Below are positions 27,649 through 55,121 of a DNA stretch of 64,000 nucleotides, one piece after another; positions within the stretch are counted from its first letter, which is position 1; the number at the start of each line of letters is the position of its first letter. A program made the translations under genes and the position numbers. Below the pieces are notes generated by a model that was not told the DNA's origin, did no database searches, and saw only the letters and a list, made by a program, of their open reading frames with translations. The DNA comes from a virus (Duplodnaviria; Heunggongvirae; Uroviricota; Caudoviricetes): the IMG/VR virus record IMGVR_UViG_3300029828_000006, positions 27,904 through 91,903 of that record; one strand, written 5' to 3'.

Positions 27649-28140
27649 TTATTCCGCCCAGTTGTAAACAATGCGCAGGGAAGGTTTAACGACCGCCGTT
27701 ACGTCTTCGGATGAGAAGTCCACGGCGTCGGAATACACTTTGCAATGAGAATATGTGCGGATCAGACCTTTATGGTTACCGCTATTCGATTCAGCCGCCG
27801 CCTGTAAGGTAATTTCCAGATATTCTTTTCCGTATACCATCTGTTTTACAGCGGCGAGAACTGCGCCTTCGATAGTTTCCGCGCATGTGACCTGAAATTC
27901 ACCAGAGTTGCGTAATGGTCCGTGCTGGTTGAATTTCATGCCACCAGGGGCGTAATCCTCCACATCTTCACGTGTCATTTCTGGTAACTGAGCTGTACGA
28001 ACTAGTACAGACAGATGTTCGTAACCCTTAATGGTCATCCAATATTCAGAACCAATAAGTTTTTCGCCTGCAGCCAGGTTTTTATTAAACCGGGATTTTA
28101 GAAAGGCCATATCGGCTTTTGTATTTGCAAAACCGGACAT
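27649..28140 (-). CDS. tail tube protein candidate
   Basis: 163 aa, size and position downstream of sheath gene typical of myovirus tube proteins. Confidence 0.35.
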   Translation of the reverse strand: MSGFANTKADMAFLKSRFNKNLAAGEKLIGSEYWMTIKGYEHLSVLVRTAQLPEMTREDVEDYAPGGMKFNQHGPLRNSGEFQVTCAETIEGAVLAAVKQMVYGKEYLEITLQAAAESNSGNHKGLIRTYSHCKVYSDAVDFSSEDVTAVVKPSLRIVYNWAE

Positions 28141-35931: not shown

Positions 35932-36215
35932 TATGCAACCTGAAAAATATCCTCGCCGTTGGCGATAACAGAACCACAAGAAAGCGGATCGCCTACACAG
36001 ACAACTCCCTTTCCACCTATCGAAAACCATACTCGCGTCGATACAGCTGCCCCTGGATGTGCACTGTTACCGTCAGTGTGACTGGGAAACATGGCACCAT
36101 CTACAACAATTGGCTTACCGTTAACGGTGAACCAGGGAACAGTTTCAGCTACCAGTCGCGGCGGAAATCCTCCGTGACCAGAACAAAGGGTGTCGCTGGT
36201 GGCTATTGCGCTCAT
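35931..36215 (-). CDS. PAAR-like spike-tip protein
   Basis: 94 aa, Cys/His/Gly-rich PAAR-type pattern (CSGHGG...VNGKPIVVDGAM...CVGDPLSCGSVIANG). Confidence 0.5.
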   Translation of the reverse strand: MSAIATSDTLCSGHGGFPPRLVAETVPWFTVNGKPIVVDGAMFPSHTDGNSAHPGAAVSTRVWFSIGGKGVVCVGDPLSCGSVIANGEDIFQVA

Positions 36216-36239
36216 TCTTCACCTCCTGGTTATCCTCCT

Positions 36240-36457
36240 ATTGTCATCACTTTGTTATTTCGTCATTCAAACTGAGAGTTAAATTTCGGAATATTTTTGT
36301 ATTCTCAATTCATTCTCAAATAAATCTCACTGTCAGACCATCATTCATTGGGTGATTAAGATATTCTCAAAGTGAACTCAATAATCACTCTTTTTTATCT
36401 CTTTTGGTGTGGATTTTTGGGTGCTTCTCTTTTAAAATTGCATTTTGATTCTCAAAT
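36240..36457. repeat. parC-like centromere with repeated ATTCTCAA units upstream of parM
   Basis: Units at ~36310, 36323, 36370, 36447 in AT-rich region. Confidence 0.5.
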
Positions 36458-36481
36458 GTGTCTCAGAAGTGGAGCAAGAAG

Positions 36482-37438
36482 ATGCGCATTTTTATCGATG
36501 ATGGTTCAACCAATATCAAAATGCTGTGGGAGCACGACGGGGAAACTCGCACTCACATCAGCCCTAACAGCTTTAAGCGCGGATGGTCAGCAACATTTGG
36601 TGCGGGCAAGCCGTTTAACTATGTCATTGACGACGAAAAGTATTCGTATGATTTGATCTCGCCAGATGTTCTGCCGACGAATAACGTGGAATGGCAATAC
36701 AGCCCGCTTAACGTCCTGGCTGTTCACCATGCCCTGCTGACAAGTGGCATTGAGCCGCAGGAAGTAGAAATTGTGGTCACGCTGCCTCTGGCGGAGTTTT
36801 ACGACGACGACGCGCAATACAATCTCGATAACATCGAGCGCAAGAAAGCCAGCCTTATGCGCCCCGTCACGCTGAATAAAGGCAATGTGTTCACGATTAA
36901 GAAAGTTACGGTACGCCCGGAGTCTATTCCGGCAGGAATTGGCCTGTGCGACAATCTGAACCCTGCCCATTCTGTTCTTATCGTCGATTTGGGTGGAACT
37001 ACCCTTGATGTTTCAATGGTCGCCGGGCAAATGACGGCAGTTTCCCGTGTTTTTGGCGATTCGAATCTTGGCGTCTCTCTGGTTACCAGGGAAGTAAGGC
37101 AAGCACTTGCCAGAGCCAATACCGAAACGTCAAATTACAATGTCGATCAGCTCATTATTAACCGCCACGATGAAGATTATCTGAACGACAATATCAATGA
37201 CCCATCAGCGATTGGTGATGTGAAAAAGGCCATTGCCGCAAGCATTGATCGTCTGCGTACCCGCGTTCTTGATGTGATTGGCGACTTTAAAGGATATACG
37301 CATGTCATGGTGATCGGTGGTGGCGCACCGCTGGTGGCAGATGCAATTCGCGAGCAAGTTAATATTCGTGATGACCGTTTCTTCGTGGCGGATGACCCGC
37401 AACTTGCTCTTGTTCATGGCCTGAAAGCAATCGGTTAA
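36482..37438 (+). CDS. parM: actin-like plasmid segregation ATPase ParM/StbA
   Basis: MRIFIDDGSTNIK...ISPNSFKR...WQYS..NV.AVHHALLTSG...DLGGTTLD...GYTHVMVIGGGA matches R1 ParM recalled from memory; SD GGAG before ATG 36482. Confidence 0.85.
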   Translation: MRIFIDDGSTNIKMLWEHDGETRTHISPNSFKRGWSATFGAGKPFNYVIDDEKYSYDLISPDVLPTNNVEWQYSPLNVLAVHHALLTSGIEPQEVEIVVTLPLAEFYDDDAQYNLDNIERKKASLMRPVTLNKGNVFTIKKVTVRPESIPAGIGLCDNLNPAHSVLIVDLGGTTLDVSMVAGQMTAVSRVFGDSNLGVSLVTREVRQALARANTETSNYNVDQLIINRHDEDYLNDNINDPSAIGDVKKAIAASIDRLRTRVLDVIGDFKGYTHVMVIGGGAPLVADAIREQVNIRDDRFFVADDPQLALVHGLKAIG

Positions 37439-37445
37439 CGAGGTA

Positions 37446-37790
37446 ATGTCCATGTCTCAGGAACGTAAGAAAGTGATGATTTATCTTCGCCCAGAGGCTT
37501 ATGCCAATGAAAAGGCGGCGAGCGAGAAGATAAAAAAACATAGCGATATGGCAAGAACCGCATTGTTGGCAGGGCTTGCGCTGGGAGAAGTCGATAGCAG
37601 GCTTCCAGGATTACTGGCTTCCCTGCTGACCGAAGATAATAATCCGGAGCTGATCCGAAAAATGCTGGCATCCTTCCTGGAACTACCAGCTGCGGTTGAG
37701 GAGCGCCCTGCCTCCATTGAGCCAGTGAAGGAGCAAGTTGTTGCCAAAAGCGCGTCGGCGCGCAATCTGGCTGACTCTCTACCTGATTGA
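37446..37790 (+). CDS. parR: ParR/StbB-like partition adaptor
   Basis: 114 aa immediately after parM; RTALLAGLALG motif. Confidence 0.6.
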   Translation: MSMSQERKKVMIYLRPEAYANEKAASEKIKKHSDMARTALLAGLALGEVDSRLPGLLASLLTEDNNPELIRKMLASFLELPAAVEERPASIEPVKEQVVAKSASARNLADSLPD

Positions 37791-37808
37791 CAGAAGATGT
37801 GCTGGTTT

Positions 37809-37835
37809 AAGGCTGCAAATTGCAGCCTTTTTTAT
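37809..37835. terminator. rho-independent terminator after parR
   Basis: aaggctgcaaattgcagcctttttt. Confidence 0.6.
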
Positions 37836-37843
37836 GCCTTAAT

Positions 37844-37917
37844 GGTGCCTAATTGGTGTTAATCTGGCACCAGTTAGGTGCTGTTATGGTGCAGTTTTGT
37901 ATCTGGTTCCAATTTGG
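37844..37917. repeat. centromere-like GGTGC(A)CC repeat cluster upstream of parA
   Basis: ggtgcctaattggtg / tggcaccagttaggtgc / ggtgcag / ggttccaatttgg. Confidence 0.45.
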
Positions 37918-38077
37918 GGCTGATTTCGTGTTAAATAGGATGCAATATAAGGTGTATTTGGTCTGATTGATGTTATACTTTGCCAAACATTCATGACTCC
38001 ATTATAGAGCCTGTCCCGCATCAAAAAGGCTCTTATCTGGAACCGTTTTGATACCAAAATCACACCGAGGAACGGAT

Positions 38078-38719
38078 ATGATTATATTGGTAGTCAGCCA
38101 AAAAGGTGGCTGTGGAAAATCAACCACAAGCGTAAACATCTGTGCGGAGCTTGCCCGCGCAAATAAGGATGTAGTGTTACTAGATGCAGACAAGCAAGGA
38201 ACAGCTGCCCGCTGGGCAGCTGACCGTAACACGGCAGAGGTTTCTCCTGTTATTCATTGTGTCCAGAAGTTTGGTAATATTCGAGAAACACTTCTCGATC
38301 TGGATAAGCGTTATGAATTTGTAGTTGTTGATACAGCCGGGCGCGATAGCAAAGAGATGCGTACAGGCATAACCGCTGCAGATATTGTGTTGGTCCCATT
38401 CAGACCATCTCAACCAGATTTAGACACGCTGGCACACTTTGTTGAAGTGTTTGAAGAGGCTTTGGACCTGATGCCTAATCCTAGCATTAAGGCGTTCGCA
38501 GTCTTAACAATGGCCCCATCCAATCCGGTTGTGAATGAAACCAATGAGGCCAAAGAGTACCTGGCTGAATATCCGCAACTGAAGTTGCTGAAAACCATCA
38601 TTCGTGATCGTAAGGTTTACCGCGATTGCATGGCTGAAGGGAAGGGCGTTGTTGAGATGGACAACGGGAAAGCTAAAGGTGAAATCCAGATGTTGGTTAA
38701 GGAGTTATTAAGTGATTAA
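38078..38719 (+). CDS. parA: ParA/Soj-family partition ATPase (small type Ib)
   Basis: Walker A VVSQKGGCGKST; ATG 38078 with SD GAGGA preferred over track TTG 38048. Confidence 0.85.
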   Translation: MIILVVSQKGGCGKSTTSVNICAELARANKDVVLLDADKQGTAARWAADRNTAEVSPVIHCVQKFGNIRETLLDLDKRYEFVVVDTAGRDSKEMRTGITAADIVLVPFRPSQPDLDTLAHFVEVFEEALDLMPNPSIKAFAVLTMAPSNPVVNETNEAKEYLAEYPQLKLLKTIIRDRKVYRDCMAEGKGVVEMDNGKAKGEIQMLVKELLSD

Positions 38720-38999
38720 GCCTCGTAAATCGGTAAAAGCCCCCGAAGTAAAAGACCCCGATCTTGAACGCCGAATTGAGGATTTTGCCAGTAAGGCTGA
38801 TTTGGTGCCAGGTGAGCAACCAGAAGACAACAAAGTGCTCGATAAGGACGCTCCACGTGATTTTAAATCTATTCGTGTTGGTTTCAATGAATACGAGTAC
38901 CAGGTACTTGATGCGTTAAGTAAAAAGCATAATCGCAGCAAATTGAATATGATCCGCCATGCTATCCTCATGTTAGCGGAGTCTGAGGAAGCAAAATAA
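38712..38999 (+). CDS. ParG-like small partition protein
   Basis: 95 aa, GTG start overlapping parA stop; C-terminal RHH-like segment. Confidence 0.5.
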   Translation: MIKPRKSVKAPEVKDPDLERRIEDFASKADLVPGEQPEDNKVLDKDAPRDFKSIRVGFNEYEYQVLDALSKKHNRSKLNMIRHAILMLAESEEAK

Positions 39000-39039
39000 A
39001 GTCTTTCAGGTTGGTTTTAGAACTTAAAAAGTCTTGAAC

Positions 39040-39110
39040 CAAAGGTGCACCAATACACCACTAATTTGGTGCACCTTTACATCCTTTTTGGTTCCAATTG
39101 TGTACCATTT
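39040..39110. repeat. palindromic centromere-like repeat downstream of parG (GGTGCACCAA / TTGGTGCACC)
   Basis: Inverted repeat 39044-39076 plus ggttccaattg at 39090. Confidence 0.45.
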
Positions 39111-39267
39111 GTCATTAATTTACTTATGCGCAAAAGTGGGCTTCATGAAAAAGCTCATTATTGAAATAACGATAGAAAGCAATTTCTAATCAACTAGTGG
39201 TTGTCAGCCTATTCGGCTTATAAGATCATACGCTGTTATACGTAGTTTACGCTTTGAGGAATCCACA

Positions 39268-40929
39268 ATGAGTGAGGCAGAAGCCCGCCCGACTAACTTT
39301 ATTCGTCAGATCATCGATGAAGATCTGGCCAGTGGTAAGCACACCACAGTACATACCCGTTTCCCGCCGGAACCGAATGGCTATCTGCATATTGGTCATG
39401 CGAAATCTATCTGCCTGAACTTCGGGATCGCCCAGGACTATAAAGGCCAGTGCAACCTGCGTTTCGACGACACTAACCCGGTAAAAGAAGATATCGAGTA
39501 TGTTGAGTCGATCAAAAACGACGTTGAGTGGTTAGGTTTTCACTGGTCTGGTAACGTCCGTTACTCCTCCGATTATTTTGATCAGCTCCACGCCTATGCG
39601 ATCGAACTGATAAATAAAGGCCTGGCGTATGTTGATGAACTGACACCGGAACAGATCCGCGAATACCGCGGCACCCTGACGCAGCCGGGTAAAAACAGCC
39701 CGTACCGCGACCGCAGCGTTGAAGAGAACCTGGCGCTGTTCGAAAAAATGCGTACCGGTGGTTTTGAAGAAGGTAAAGCCTGCCTGCGTGCGAAAATCGA
39801 CATGGCGTCGCCATTTATCGTAATGCGCGATCCGGTGCTGTACCGCATTAAATTTGCTGAACACCACCAGACTGGCAACAAGTGGTGCATCTACCCGATG
39901 TACGACTTCACCCATTGCATCAGCGATGCGCTGGAAGGTATTACGCACTCTCTGTGTACGCTTGAGTTCCAGGACAACCGCCGCCTGTACGACTGGGTGC
40001 TGGACAACATCACCATTCCTGTTCACCCGCGCCAGTACGAATTCTCGCGCCTGAATCTGGAATACACCGTGATGTCCAAGCGTAAGCTGAACCTGCTGGT
40101 GACCGACAAGCACGTTGAAGGCTGGGATGACCCGCGTATGCCGACCATTTCCGGTCTGCGTCGTCGTGGTTACACTGCGGCTTCTATTCGTGAGTTCTGC
40201 AAACGCATCGGCGTGACCAAGCAGGACAACACCATTGAAATGGCGTCGCTGGAATCCTGCATCCGTGAAGATCTCAACGAAAATGCCCCGCGCGCAATGG
40301 CGGTTATCGATCCGGTGAAACTGGTTATCGAAAACTACCAGGGCGAAGGCGAAATGGTCACCATGCCGAACCATCCGAACAAACCGGAAATGGGTAGCCG
40401 TCAGGTGCCGTTTAGCGGTGAGATTTGGATCGACCGCGCCGATTTCCGCGAAGAAGCTAACAAGCAGTACAAACGTCTGGTGCTGGGTAAAGAAGTGCGT
40501 CTGCGTAATGCTTACGTCATTAAGGCTGAACGCGTGGAGAAAGATGCCGAAGGCAATATCACCACCATCTTCTGTACTTATGACGCCGACACCTTAAGCA
40601 AAGATCCGGCAGATGGTCGTAAAGTGAAAGGCGTTATTCACTGGGTGAGCGCGGCACATGCGCTGCCGGTTGAAATCCGCCTGTACGATCGTCTGTTCAG
40701 CGTGCCGAACCCAGGTGCTGCGGATGATTTCCTGTCGGTGATTAACCCGGAATCGCTGGTGATCAAACAGGGTTTTGCTGAACCGTCGCTGAAAGAAGCG
40801 GTAGCGGGTAAAGCATTCCAGTTTGAGCGTGAAGGTTATTTCTGCCTCGACAGCCGCCATTCTACGGCGGAAAAACCGGTATTTAACCGCACCGTTGGGC
40901 TGCGTGATACCTGGGCGAAGTTAGGTTAA
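39268..40929 (+). CDS. glnS: glutaminyl-tRNA synthetase
   Basis: 553 aa with class I HIGH ([13 protein letters not shown]) and VMSKR (KMSKS-type) motifs; matches E. coli GlnRS recalled from memory almost throughout. Confidence 0.95.
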
Positions 40930-40953
40930 TAGGTATTTCGCCACATAAAAAAG

Positions 40954-40979
40954 AAAACGCCGCTACTGCGGCGTTTTTT
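40954..40979. terminator. bidirectional terminator between glnS and Dam-methylase gene
   Basis: aaaacgccgctactgcggcgtttttt. Confidence 0.65.
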
Positions 40980-41883
40980 ACTTCATTATTGCAATTATAT
41001 CGTTAGCAACTACACGTTTTGACGCCTTGCAGGACACCGACCGTCTGGCTGCCATATGATGTACTTTAAACCCGTTTCCTTCATATAGTTCACGGATGTT
41101 TGGCGCACCACTATTTGTTATCACTACCTTAGCGCCGCGCTGGTGGGCTTCCACCAATAGAGATACCAGCCGTTTCTGTTCGTCGAAACGGAAGCTATTT
41201 CCTGAATAACTGGTAAACCCTTCTGTATCCGGCAGCGGTTCATACGGCGGATCGCAAAAAATCACATCGCCTTCACCAGCCGCCTCGATGACGCCAGCAA
41301 AGTCACCTGATACAAAGGACGTGTTTTTGAGGACGTCATCAGCCAAAAATGCCTCCATCTCTGCATGTGGGAAGTAGGGCGCTTTGTATTTGCCATACCC
41401 CACGTTGAACTCGCCATTTTGGTTGTACCGCGTTACGCCATTAAAACAGTGCCGATTAAGGTACAAAAAGGCGGCAGCATGATGTAGCTGGTCATACTTT
41501 CCTCTGTTAAATGCCTCACGCACTTCGAGGTAAGCGTCAGCGTTGTTGTAATTTTGGAAAAAACTATATGACAGCGTGACGAGCGAATGTCCTTCTCGCT
41601 GCAATGTCTGATAGAAGTTAATCAGGTCACCGTTAATATCATTAAGCAGGTTGTGGCAAAATCCTGCATTCGTAAATACGGAACCGCCACCAACGAATGG
41701 TTCTATTAACCGCTTACCGTGTGGTAGATGCTCAAGCACTGTAGGCAATTCTGAGAATTTACCACCTACCCATTTGAATATCGGACGCTCATATTCATCC
41801 GGAGTCCGAATGGTGCGCATATAGCTAATTTCAGCCATCGTATCCTGTTTTTCTATGGCTATGCTTGCTATAGATTTACTCAT
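40978..41883 (-). CDS. Dam-family DNA adenine (N6) methyltransferase
   Basis: FKWVGGK...EPFVGGGSVF and DPPY motifs; ATG 41883 overlaps stop of upstream gene (ATGAGTAA). Confidence 0.85.
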   Translation of the reverse strand: MSKSIASIAIEKQDTMAEISYMRTIRTPDEYERPIFKWVGGKFSELPTVLEHLPHGKRLIEPFVGGGSVFTNAGFCHNLLNDINGDLINFYQTLQREGHSLVTLSYSFFQNYNNADAYLEVREAFNRGKYDQLHHAAAFLYLNRHCFNGVTRYNQNGEFNVGYGKYKAPYFPHAEMEAFLADDVLKNTSFVSGDFAGVIEAAGEGDVIFCDPPYEPLPDTEGFTSYSGNSFRFDEQKRLVSLLVEAHQRGAKVVITNSGAPNIRELYEGNGFKVHHMAARRSVSCKASKRVVANDIIAIMK

Positions 41884-42526
41884 AGAGCACCCCCTTATTC
41901 GCTTCGAAAACTGCCTTTGCGAATCCATGTGGAGTAGCACTTCGAAAATTAGCCCTGTCAGGCCCTGGTGGCGCGGCATGGATTCTGTTATCTGGCTTGC
42001 CTAATGATTCGTCCATTAGGGCATCAGGCATGACAAAGCCCTGGCCGCTCCAGAGGCATGTTTTTTTGGTGTAGTTATCTTCCTGACAATATGCAGTGAA
42101 GAAGTAAGGGTGAAAGATGTGATCTGGCTTACGCCAGAATGTCGATATTTTGCTGACCGGATTTTCAATCATGTACGGACAACCGATCATCTTTGCAATG
42201 TCATAACACTGCCAGACAACCTGCATTGCTTTGAACTGGAAAAACGGATCTTTGTCAGCCTTATGCGCAAACCAGCGCGCACCGGAAACAGCAAGGTCCG
42301 TGCACGGCGGAAAACCAGCTAAAAACACAATACGTTGTAAATTATTTCGGAGAAAAGCATAAACTTCATCACTATCGATAATCGCACTGATACGTGTCAG
42401 AACTGCGCCTGATTGCATCAGCTCATCTCTGGTCTCTGCGTGTTGTGGATCGACGATAACAGCATCTATACCATGCTCCAGCCAGGGGGCGACCATTTTC
42501 CCCGTGAAATCACAAAGACTCACCAT
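41876..42526 (-). CDS. divergent C5-cytosine methyltransferase-like protein
   Basis: GFPPC..AVSGAR (PCQ-type motif IV) and ENP (ENV-type motif VI); likely start MVSLCDF at 42526, 14 nt after rdgC stop. Confidence 0.5.
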   Translation of the reverse strand: MVSLCDFTGKMVAPWLEHGIDAVIVDPQHAETRDELMQSGAVLTRISAIIDSDEVYAFLRNNLQRIVFLAGFPPCTDLAVSGARWFAHKADKDPFFQFKAMQVVWQCYDIAKMIGCPYMIENPVSKISTFWRKPDHIFHPYFFTAYCQEDNYTKKTCLWSGQGFVMPDALMDESLGKPDNRIHAAPPGPDRANFRSATPHGFAKAVFEANKGVLYE

Positions 42527-42539
42527 CAGAGGTCTATTG

Positions 42540-43445
42540 TTAACGTTCTGCTTCACCACCAACGGCCTCCACCAGCGAAGTGAACATCGCGGATAATTCA
42601 GCAGTAAACAGGATAAAGTCAGCGTCAAATCGTTGCGCAACATCCTCTCGATCAATATCGTCGTTCTGGTCGTACAATTCGTCGCTGAACGACAAAGCCT
42701 TGATACTCATATCGTCATTCAGTCTGAAAAATGCACGGTCTTGCCAGTTAACCGCAACTGTGGTTGCAACCTTACCAGCTTCTATATGACTCATGATCTC
42801 GTCGGATAGCAGGTCCACTTTTTTGCAGCGGACCGCGCCGCCATCATCAAGCAATGCTTTTAAGGTCGCTTCCTCACCGGCACGGAAACCGTTCGGGAAG
42901 CCATTTTTAATCCAGCCAGTGATGGTCAGTTCTAATGGGTCTTTCGGAGAGAAGGGGACAACGGGCAAGCTGCCAAGCGATTTCCGTAACAAAGCCAGCT
43001 GATCCTCTGCTTTTTTAGCACTGCTGGCCTCGACAAAAACCAGATGATTGCTTCGGTCTATCAGGATTTTAGCGACTGATTTTCTCGTGAAAGCACGAGG
43101 AAGCAGAGAGTGAAGCACTTCATCCTTCAGCGAATCTTTTTCAGTCTTCTTCAGCTTTCTGTCTTGCTCTTCTTCAAGTGTCAGGATTTTTTTCTGTAAC
43201 TCTTCTTTGAGCACTTGAGAGGGTAGGATTTTTTCCTCTCGTTTATGCTGTATCAGAAGAAAACCCTGGTATTCATGGGTGAGGTTGTCACCAAGAACGG
43301 AGGTCCAACCAGCTTTAGCCATATCCTGAGAACCGCATGGGGTAAACACAAACTTGCTAAGGGCTGCATTTACTTCTGCAGTATCCCAGCTAACTTCGCG
43401 TGAAAGACGATAGATGAAGATATTTTTGAAAGCGACTGATCTCAT
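42540..43445 (-). CDS. rdgC: RdgC-like recombination-associated protein
   Basis: 301 aa; [12 protein letters not shown]...[11 protein letters not shown]...[21 protein letters not shown]...RFDADFIL resembles E. coli RdgC (from memory). Confidence 0.75.
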
Positions 43446-43454
43446 GTCTCACCA

Positions 43455-43492
43455 TTTGTGTTAGAAAATACATATTAATTATCTAACACAAA
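43455..43492. promoter_or_regulatory. pair of inverted operator-like motifs upstream of rdgC
   Basis: TTTGTGTTAGAAAA (43455-43468) and TTATCTAACACAAA (43479-43492); first copy lies 10 nt from rdgC ATG. Confidence 0.5.
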
Positions 43493-43504
43493 TGGGTGCA
43501 TTTT

Positions 43505-44158
43505 CTATCCTTTCTTGAAATCGAAGTTGCCAGCAGTGGCCTGAAAGGTTCCTCCTGCCTTGAAAGCTATGTCTCCGTTAGCGGTGACAGCTATATTTTC
43601 CCCATTAACATTGATGTTGTTGGCTGATTTGACGTTAACACTCCCTCCTGCATTCACGATTACATCAGCCGGACCAATGATATATATCTGCCCGGACTCA
43701 TTCATGCCAATCCTTGAGCCTGCTGCCGTATTGGCAATTTCATAGCCGCCACCAGCAGTTCGTACTTCAAGAATATTGTTGCGGTGAATAACGAAGTCTT
43801 TCGTTGCTGAGATTTGGGGGCGGGGAGGTGCTCCATCTACTTCCGGCGGCGTCCAGCCGTTGCCTTTGCCAGATGCTTCTGGTGCAACGTTTGGAATTCC
43901 TCCCGGTGCATCCTGAGCGGCACCAACTATCATTGGGCGTCTGGTGTCTATTCGACCGTTAACATCTAAATAAGGAAACTCTACCCAGACCAGGTCACCT
44001 TTGACTGTAGGTACAAAAGCGTTCCCGATGGGTAACTGGTATTCCGCCCAGGGTAGATCGTCATCAGGAACGCCATTCCAGTCAGGTAAAACACGGACTT
44101 GAGCACGCATAAGCCCTGCCGGGTGCACAGTTCCAACAATTTGCGCTCTACGCTTCAT
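43505..44158 (-). CDS. baseplate spike protein (gpV/VgrG-like OB fold plus beta-helix)
   Basis: 217 aa; RAQVRVLPDWNGV...VPTVKGDLVWVEF...RPMIVGA then repetitive VNxGGxVNV beta-helical tail. Confidence 0.55.
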   Translation of the reverse strand: MKRRAQIVGTVHPAGLMRAQVRVLPDWNGVPDDDLPWAEYQLPIGNAFVPTVKGDLVWVEFPYLDVNGRIDTRRPMIVGAAQDAPGGIPNVAPEASGKGNGWTPPEVDGAPPRPQISATKDFVIHRNNILEVRTAGGGYEIANTAAGSRIGMNESGQIYIIGPADVIVNAGGSVNVKSANNINVNGENIAVTANGDIAFKAGGTFQATAGNFDFKKG

Positions 44159-54323: not shown

Positions 54324-54389
54324 ATTGGCAGCCTCCTTTGACTAAGTTAAGGAGCTACCGCGTGAGGTTCCAATCTCAATGGCGGTAGC

Positions 54390-54480
54390 ACTGACTGGGT
54401 TGGAACTACCGGCGTCAAAGGGAACCGGCCTGCCTTTCGGCAGCCCAGCCAGCACTACCATTGATCTCTGAGCTAAACGC
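54390..54480 (-). ncRNA. candidate c4-type antisense RNA element in second icd/ant leader
   Basis: + strand 54414-54422 gtcaaaggg is reverse complement of RBS-region cctttgac at 54335-54342. Confidence 0.25.
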
Positions 54481-55121
54481 TAAGTATGGCTGTGCGATGG
54501 CATGACACAAAAAAAGACGCGTTCGGCGTCTGTGTCGCCTTTGACATTATCCGGGGTTCCAATCCCGGCACCCGTTTTTCTAAGGTGCCGTAGAAATATA
54601 CCCCACGATAATGCCAGGGCGCAACAGTCAGTATTTTATGCTTTGGCGGATTTCTTCCGGGCTTGCTTGCAGGCGTAGGCCATTGCTTTAGCTTTCACTT
54701 CATCCAGCTTCCCGGTGATCACTTCTTTTCCGAGAGTGACAAACCAGTCATAGCAACCGCCAGTAATGTTCTTGATTTGAAAGTTGAGGTAGCGAACAGT
54801 CATTTTGACACCCCCAGCGCGAGTAAAGAATGCAGATTATCGCGTGAGTGGTGGACGACGAGTGATGGGAAAAGACTGTAGTTGTTCATAGTGTAGTGAC
54901 TCCTTGCTTTCGGAGCCGCCATCGACTGTTCCACGGTCTGGTGGCGGCGCAATAAAGGCTGGAACACCGTGAGTCAACGGGGGCTTTTCAGCCACCTATA
55001 TTGCACCGCCATAGGTATGGCGGCGGCAATAATACGAAAAACTAAACAGTTTGTCTCAAAAAGTTGACCGGTGTGCCAATCGGTAGTGAATGTACATCGG
55101 TGAAATTCACAATTCAACTTA

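Follow-up and report, generated by a model that had tools for sequence, protein, structure and literature searches.

A housekeeping glnS gene on a D6-like phage-plasmid, apparently captured once and repeatedly overwritten by chromosomal alleles

The glnS locus and the encoded enzyme

The DNA analysed here (the window) is a stretch of 64,000 nucleotides (nt), positions 27,904 to 91,903 of the IMG/VR virus record IMGVR_UViG_3300029828_000006 (Caudoviricetes), and is, judged by gene order and identity, part of a D6-like (P1-related) phage-plasmid. It carries glnS, a housekeeping gene encoding glutaminyl-tRNA synthetase (GlnRS), which appears to have been captured once by this lineage and overwritten in part by chromosomal alleles since. 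The features of the gene are as follows, in window positions.

39192-40919, + strand: segment homologous to the Escherichia coli chromosomal glnS locus (megablast and alignments)
39201-39229, + strand: sigma-70-like promoter, TTGTCA, 17 nt, GATCAT (consensus scan and allele alignment)
39224-39227, + strand: Dam site GATC inside the -10 hexamer, as in the native glnS promoter
39268-40929, + strand: glnS coding sequence, a single uninterrupted open reading frame for a GlnRS of 553 amino acids (profiles and structure alignment)
39501-40911, + strand: gene-conversion tract inside glnS (variable-site matrix, maximum chi-square and best chromosomal matches)
40952-40979, either strand: bidirectional intrinsic terminator common to the convergent glnS (+) and dam (-) genes, part of the plasmid backbone and not chromosomal

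An earlier reading of the letters alone (the sequence-only reading) had described an apparently full-length GlnRS gene with its own promoter and terminator, and this description was borne out. The product matches the NCBIfam glnS equivalog model TIGR00440 at 1066.9 bits (cutoff 425.8) over positions 1-524 of 524, and the class I catalytic domain PF00749 and the anticodon-binding domains PF03950 and PF20974 are all of full length. The GlnRS signatures are intact, with HIGH at residues 40-43 (LHIGHAKS) and the KMSKS-type VMSKR (TVMSKRK), and residues 1-553 align end to end with the structures 1O0B, 1GTR and 1QTQ of the enzyme encoded at the E. coli chromosomal nagE-glnS-chiP locus, to which the window GlnRS is 99.5% identical. 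A163T, D510E, V552L and the loss of E554 are the only differences from the K-12 protein, and A163T is a natural polymorphism present on chromosomes too. A GAGGA Shine-Dalgarno sequence lies ahead of the ATG, and the terminator is a hairpin with a 12-bp stem plus a T-run. The plasmid GlnRS is almost certainly active. It barely differs from the host enzyme, and its interior can be exchanged for that of chromosomal alleles; its identity to the characterised E. coli enzyme suggests that it would aminoacylate tRNA-Gln. The gene is compositionally foreign relative to its neighbours, with a G+C content at third codon positions of 0.61 compared with 0.41-0.53.

Boundaries of the captured segment

Homology to the chromosome, as assessed by alignments and by megablast against 5,426 complete E. 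coli genomes, is confined to approximately 39192-40919, with 96.3-98.8% identity to chromosomal alleles; the megablast matches extend from ~39180/39200 to 40919/40925 at 96.3-98.5%. On the left the homology begins a few bp ahead of the -35 hexamer, and on the right it stops inside the gene, after codon 551; comparison with the nagE-glnS-chiP locus revealed no nagE or chiP sequence on either side. Searches of the flanks found no chromosomal neighbour, integrase, att site or insertion sequence (IS) element adjoining glnS, as the sequence-only reading had observed, and the insertion itself showed neither an IS element nor an att-like repeat. Compared with the chromosomal gene, the plasmid copy has neither flank, carries three substitutions in the promoter spacer, and has other last codons and another terminator.

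Eight plasmid alleles were aligned (those of the window, D6, pTB423, pGA_Eco1, two Salmonella plasmids, pETEC1706 and ptetA). All eight open reading frames are intact at 553 amino acids, their 5' and 3' boundaries are identical, and all end in ...AKLG*, whereas nine of nine chromosomal alleles end in ...AKVGE*. The identical junctions and this shared C-terminus indicate a single capture of glnS by the D6-like lineage. The three spacer substitutions are all present in seven of the eight plasmid alleles, pTB423 differing at the third. Plasmid and chromosomal promoters have the same -35 and -10 hexamers, the GATC in the latter included. The chromosomal glnS promoter is approximately two-fold derepressed in dam mutants (Plumbridge and Soll 1987, as cited in PMC11741368), and the plasmid copy would be expected to be Dam-repressed like the chromosomal one.

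Three accounts of the insertion were considered and rejected. A 12/13-nt direct repeat, TCATTATTG[A/C]AAT, brackets the insert at 39155-39167 and 40983-40995, its right copy falling in the last dam codons; as a target-site duplication or microhomology it was not significant in a local-alignment shuffle test (109/2000) and may be due to chance. A simple empty site was not found, since relatives of the element without glnS have a different spacer between orf61 and dam and a different terminator stem, and the flanks do not simply abut. Integration of the element into chromosomal glnS by homologous recombination does not agree with the occurrence of its partition module on 0 chromosomes among the 5,426 E. 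coli genomes.

Gene conversion from the chromosome

A matrix of 153 variable sites in 17 Escherichia-type alleles was compiled, and these sites fall into blocks. All plasmid alleles have bases specific to plasmids in the promoter, the first ~130 nt of the coding sequence and the 3' end. Between these regions the alleles differ: the 3' half is practically the K-12 allele in D6, pSL26_91 and pETEC1706, and the 3' third is of a different chromosomal type in pGA_Eco1 and the plasmid of Salmonella Concord. In the window, 39501-40911 is of chromosomal type (similar to CM187539, B1.H1.18 and PEC1020) and both gene ends are of plasmid type. Chromosomal alleles, among them those of PEC1020, ST2747 and CM187539, match this tract at 99.0-99.4% identity, and the whole window allele is 98.8% identical to a chromosomal allele but at most 98.0% identical to any other sampled plasmid allele. 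Two-breakpoint maximum chi-square tests were matched in 0 of 300 permutations for each of five triplets, with a chi-square of 63.4 for the window tract. Most plasmid glnS alleles are, by this evidence, mosaics repeatedly overwritten by chromosomal alleles.

Transfer was detected from chromosome to plasmid only. Conversion in the opposite direction was rejected, as no non-plasmid E. coli record is at least 95% identical to a 201-nt block of plasmid-type sequence (coding nt ~270-470), chromosomes reaching at most 93.0% among the matches listed. The current host need not be the donor of a tract, to judge from strain ST167, of which the chromosome has the K-12 allele and the plasmid has other allele types. 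In the PEC1020 chromosome (NZ_CP162603.1), whose glnS comes closest to the window tract among chromosomes (99.4%), the gene for an IS200C transposase is situated between nagE and glnS (locus L022, 1598-2056).

Origin of the plasmid-type allele

The least-converted allele is that of pTB423 (NZ_CP034790.1). A search with its glnS gave matches at 90-95% identity in 5,424 E. coli genome records and at 95% or more in only 76, in keeping with the 81 plasmid copies, and the best matches listed are all other plasmid copies. The 201-nt plasmid-type block is at least 95% identical in 69 of 76 plasmid copies, the remainder (~7 of 76) having lost it as the window has, and 5,424 records match it at 90-95%. 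Every E. coli chromosome differs by 7-8% from the ancestral plasmid-type blocks, and the synonymous divergence (dS) of the block from K-12 is 0.31-0.45, compared with 0.09 between E. coli phylogroups. Two residues of the plasmid-type protein, I97 and V112, are common to a Citrobacter allele and not found in E. coli. The plasmid-type allele is, on this comparison, outside E. coli diversity, and because of the divergence of the block and the two residues shared with the Citrobacter allele, the donor was probably a relative of E. coli and not E. coli itself.

Among carriers of glnS, the identity of the adjacent parA-orf61 module ranges from 100% down to 78%, while glnS is at least 95% identical throughout, a disparity suggesting that the two sides of the junction evolve very differently or that modules have been swapped. 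That glnS is linked to modules diverged to 78-82% identity likewise suggests that the gene was acquired long ago, but shuffling of modules could produce a similar pattern.

The element and its distribution

The sequence-only reading had considered two origins for this arrangement, capture of glnS as cargo by a phage-plasmid or an unusual chromosomal junction. The former is borne out by the synteny and the 96-100% identity shared with phage D6 and 97 complete circular D6-like plasmids. Window positions 36000-44000 are 96.0% identical to Escherichia phage D6 (MF356679.1, NC_050154.1) over 100% of their length, the gene order of D6 orf56-orf69 matches that of the window, and D6 orf62 occupies the same position in the order parM-stbB-parA-orf61-glnS-dam-rdgC. 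The same gene is found in the same position in D6-like plasmid prophages such as pYU39_89 and pSL26_91. D6 orf62 has the same junctions and ...AKLG* end as the window gene and 98.9% protein identity to it; unlike the window it keeps V97I, Q106K and I112V, the ~1.4 kb interior of the window gene being of a different chromosomal allele type.

The same 8-kb stretch matches 140 plasmids of PLSDB, 97 of them collinear over at least 80% of its length, and the E. coli plasmid CP088384.1 (91.9 kb) is 100% identical to it. The hosts are mainly E. coli, with Salmonella and Shigella also represented, and eight of eight related plasmid records that were typed belong to rep_cluster_1704. glnS is annotated as intact in most of more than 100 plasmids. 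A tblastn search of 50,697 phage records found a host-type GlnRS in no isolate other than D6. The parA-orf61 module occurs in 94 of the 5,426 E. coli genomes, every time on a plasmid. The contiguity of the locus and its extrachromosomal (plasmid prophage) state are established by approximately 100 independent assemblies.

The genes on either side of glnS are listed below.

36458-37438, same orientation as glnS: ParM/StbA, to the left of glnS
37446-37790, same orientation as glnS: StbB, to the left of glnS
38048-38719, + strand: ParA-type ATPase (Pfam; D6 orf60)
38712-38999, + strand: orf61, 95 amino acids, no Pfam match (D6 orf61)
38048-38999, + strand: partition module comprising parA and orf61, directly upstream of glnS
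39000-39191, + strand: orf61-glnS intergenic region, restricted to the glnS-carrying lineage and unlike the DNA of the nagE-glnS spacer
40978-41979, - strand: phage Dam, a D12-class N6-adenine methylase convergent with glnS (PF02086, E = 6e-56; D6 orf63)
41876-42655, - strand: open reading frame between dam and rdgC, annotated in D6 as a putative cytosine methylase
42540-43445, - strand: RdgC, to the right of glnS

The D6 annotation of this neighbourhood lists StbA/StbB, a possible ParA, Dam, a putative cytosine methylase, RdgC and P1-like tail genes. The sequence-only reading had placed a ParA/ParG partition locus to the left of glnS and a Dam/C5-methylase/rdgC operon to the right; ParA, Dam and rdgC stand, and the labels ParG and C5-methylase are plausible, yet backed by no profile here. 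The reading frame at 41876-42655 has no Pfam match at E <= 0.001, and its start overlaps neighbouring genes. Directly downstream of orf61, at 39041-39078, is a perfect 13-bp inverted repeat, AAAGGTGCACCAA N12 TTGGTGCACCTTT, a candidate partition site (centromere) or terminator; relatives without glnS have other repeats at this position.

Elsewhere in the window, C4 antisense RNA (RF01695), which is typical of P1-type immunity and in keeping with a D6-like element, is present at 1116-1201 and 54378-54465, and RF03163 at 1269-1321. Of the two C4 regions, both on the minus strand (1116-1321 and 54378-54588), one has the a1b1 target (RF03163) and one lies beside an isrK-like small RNA (RF01394), which would imply two P1-type immunity regions. 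The D6-like element has two toxin-antitoxin systems, and four tRNA genes have been reported for D6-like genomes (PMC6799933); no tRNA gene was found within the 64-kb window.

Family members without glnS and chromosomal copies in carriers

D6-family plasmids without glnS include NZ_AP027678.1, NZ_CP115379.1 and NZ_LR890273.1, in which orf61 is followed by a terminator and then by dam. The terminator is AAAAAGCCCCAGGCGGGGCTTTTT in the first two and has a variant stem in NZ_LR890273.1, where the orf61-dam spacer is ~135 bp. The published statement that glnS is present in all D6-like genomes is not strictly true. Variants of ~75 kb that have no morphogenesis genes keep glnS (see also PMC6799933).

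Chromosomal glnS was found in 5,428 places in 5,425 of the 5,426 E. coli genomes; a few chromosomes have an extra copy, and one genome has no match. The sequence-only reading had raised the question of a second, chromosomal glnS in a genome that carries the element, and ST167 has one: it is intact, with promoter and protein identical to those of K-12.

Comparable plasmid-borne synthetase genes

The glnS cargo of D6-like phage-plasmids is already known from annotation and publication. The GenBank record of D6 (MF356679) describes orf62 as 'glutaminyl-tRNA synthetase, similar to E. coli GlnS', and the D6 genome paper is cited for the original observation in PMC6799933, where the gene is called a 'moron' (cargo gene) and a role in plasmid maintenance is proposed by analogy with cysS of pBT1 in Salmonella ST313. 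The pBT1 gene, in Salmonella Typhimurium ST313 strain D23580, is likewise a plasmid-borne housekeeping class I aminoacyl-tRNA synthetase (aaRS) gene of an enterobacterium (PMC6785131, PMC11481867), but it encodes a different synthetase, on a plasmid of another type. The displacement of a chromosomal copy that has been proposed for D6-like glnS has been demonstrated experimentally for pBT1 cysS.

Plasmid p.S175-1.4 of Citrobacter cronae (NZ_CP060445.1) also has glnS with a promoter-like upstream region, near higBA. Unlike the window element it is a conjugative MOBP/MPF_I plasmid and not a phage-plasmid, its junctions are different, and its glnS (555 amino acids, ending in ...AKAGE) is 85.9% identical in nucleotides to the window gene, so that it is, by sequence, an independent acquisition. 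On this plasmid cysS and glnS are found just downstream of higB/higA (locus L004, 1507-6739), an arrangement reminiscent of pBT1 cysS. Another annotated glnS copy, 86.7% identical to the window gene, is present at 136240-137946 of the Klebsiella pneumoniae plasmid NZ_OP378648.1 (316 kb) in PLSDB.

Interpretation

The reading that best accounts for these observations, to which we assign a probability of approximately 0.8, is that of a D6-like phage-plasmid with a functional glnS, captured once and homogenised by conversion, of which the benefit is dosage or independent expression. An ancestor of the lineage captured ~1.73 kb of an Escherichia-type glnS locus, comprising a minimal Dam-sensitive sigma-70 promoter, the 5' untranslated region and the coding sequence except for its last three codons; the parA-orf61 partition operon lies on one side of this piece and the 3' end of dam on the other. 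Recurrent conversion has since kept the plasmid copy close to the host gene, and in the window a chromosomal allele has overwritten ~1.4 kb of the interior, leaving ancestral plasmid-type sequence at the ends near the junctions. In the lysogen, the glnS promoter would drive expression of the gene, perhaps supplemented by transcription running through from the par operon, providing a second, element-borne dose of an essential enzyme. Because the enzyme is nearly identical to that of the host and its interior is interchangeable, any selected benefit would have to come from an extra, independently expressed copy and not from altered enzymology, most likely as back-up or additional GlnRS that helps the prophage to be carried as a plasmid. 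The retention of glnS in the ~75-kb variants without morphogenesis genes and its location in the maintenance region, by two partition modules, suggest that it serves the plasmid or lysogenic state and not lytic growth alone.

Several points weigh against this reading. Approximately 14% of D6-family plasmids in E. coli genomes do not have glnS (94 places with the par module compared with 80-81 with glnS), from which it follows that the gene is dispensable for the element. The ratio of nonsynonymous to synonymous divergence (dN/dS) of glnS, 0.01-0.06, is in line with a functional enzyme, but such low values would partly reflect chromosomal divergence, either before capture or in imported tracts, and are no proof of selection on the plasmid; conversion may also passively repair a neutral gene. 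Neither of two scans of 100,044 species-representative genomes, one with the plasmid-type promoter GTGGTTGTCAGCCTNTNCNGCTTATAAGATCAT and one with a codon-degenerate pattern for the protein stretch ending [QK]LHAYAVELI, found the donor lineage. PMC6799933 mentions only work in progress on the function of D6-like glnS, and no later functional study was found in the literature searched.

The main rival is that glnS is a fossil of illegitimate recombination with no benefit, kept intact by linkage and conversion repair. The family members without glnS and the absence of a known phenotype fit such a neutral hitch-hiker, as do the conversion tracts, by which the chromosome continually supplies intact sequence. 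This explanation is possible though unlikely, given that eight of eight sampled reading frames and most annotated copies are intact, that a phage genome limited by packaging should shed 1.8 kb of DNA that serves no purpose and yet the gene persists, and that it does so across par modules diverged to 78% identity. A functional second dose of GlnRS that modestly favours carriage is still the best reading.

Takeover of an essential function, in which plasmid GlnRS displaces the chromosomal copy and loss of the plasmid becomes lethal or costly, has been proposed for D6-like glnS (PMC6799933). It has a precedent in the plasmid cysS that makes chromosomal cysS dispensable (PMC6785131, PMC11481867), and it would suit both the position of glnS beside partition and toxin-antitoxin functions in the D6 annotation and the Citrobacter plasmid on which cysS and glnS together adjoin higBA. 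The sequence-only reading, too, had envisaged stabilisation of the plasmid through loss of the chromosomal copy. No such loss was seen: the chromosomal gene is present in all but one of the 5,426 genomes and is unaltered from K-12 in the ST167 carrier. The family members that manage without glnS and the two toxin-antitoxin systems that the element already has also tell against it, and takeover by addiction, which finds no support in these sequence comparisons, is judged improbable, though displacement at the level of expression would be compatible with them.

Help during lytic growth, whereby glnS dosage would rise on induced replication and extra GlnRS would aid late protein synthesis, is a slightly weaker candidate. 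Some phages carry aaRS genes, GlnRS homologues were found by tblastn in uncultured phages of 630-735 kb and in Acinetobacter phage contigs, and tRNA genes occur in D6-like genomes (PMC6799933); against this, the ~75-kb variants keep glnS in the absence of morphogenesis genes, the promoter is a host housekeeping promoter and not a phage late promoter, and the neighbouring phage proteins, admittedly a small sample, are poor in glutamine (2-3%). Of comparably low likelihood is a more elaborate form of the back-up proposal, in which the copy is maintained as a back-up or 'homology anchor', matched to the tRNA-Gln and GlnRS of each host by frequent synapsis with the chromosome, of which the conversion tracts would be the trace, and supplies a Dam-repressible dose that makes the host partly dependent on the plasmid or protects translation against some insult to GlnRS or tRNA-Gln. 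Were this true, a gene of the phage-plasmid and an essential gene of its host would be evolving in concert, with selection for a function.

Extra aaRS copies are responsible for resistance to mupirocin and indolmycin, and over-expression of GltX counteracts HipA. A protective copy of this kind, conferring resistance to a GlnRS inhibitor or acting as a shield against a toxin that attacks GlnRS or tRNA-Gln, had been suggested in the sequence-only reading but is very unlikely here, and nothing specific to this locus was found in its favour. A resistance duplicate of the MupA/IleRS2 type would be clearly divergent, and the window enzyme has only three substitutions and the loss of E554 relative to K-12. 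Positions 97, 106 and 112, at which plasmid alleles vary (V97I, Q106K, I112V), have been returned to the chromosomal state in the window by replacement of the interior, and the only constant differences, V552L and the loss of E554, are at the extreme C-terminus. With 99.5% identity to the housekeeping enzyme, any protection would be through dosage only. No report linking a toxin or inhibitor directed at GlnRS to these elements was found in the literature, where such toxins were not searched for directly. Finally, an assembly chimera or a genuine junction of chromosome and plasmid, for which nothing speaks except the oddity of a housekeeping gene in such a context, can be dismissed, as D6 and 97 independently assembled circular plasmids have the same junctions and the parA-orf61 flank is present on 94 plasmids but on no chromosome of the 5,426 E. 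coli genomes.

Conclusions

To the published record of glnS in D6-like phage-plasmids, this analysis adds the exact boundaries of capture, an ancestral allele that is probably not from E. coli, gene conversion in one direction, and natural relatives without glnS, together with evidence against inhibitor resistance and no support for loss of the chromosomal copy. The relatives without glnS offer a ready comparison for functional tests. A housekeeping aaRS gene on a temperate phage-plasmid is unusual, and the D6-like glnS provides a clear example of conversion from chromosome to plasmid that appears to homogenise the mobile copy of an essential gene.

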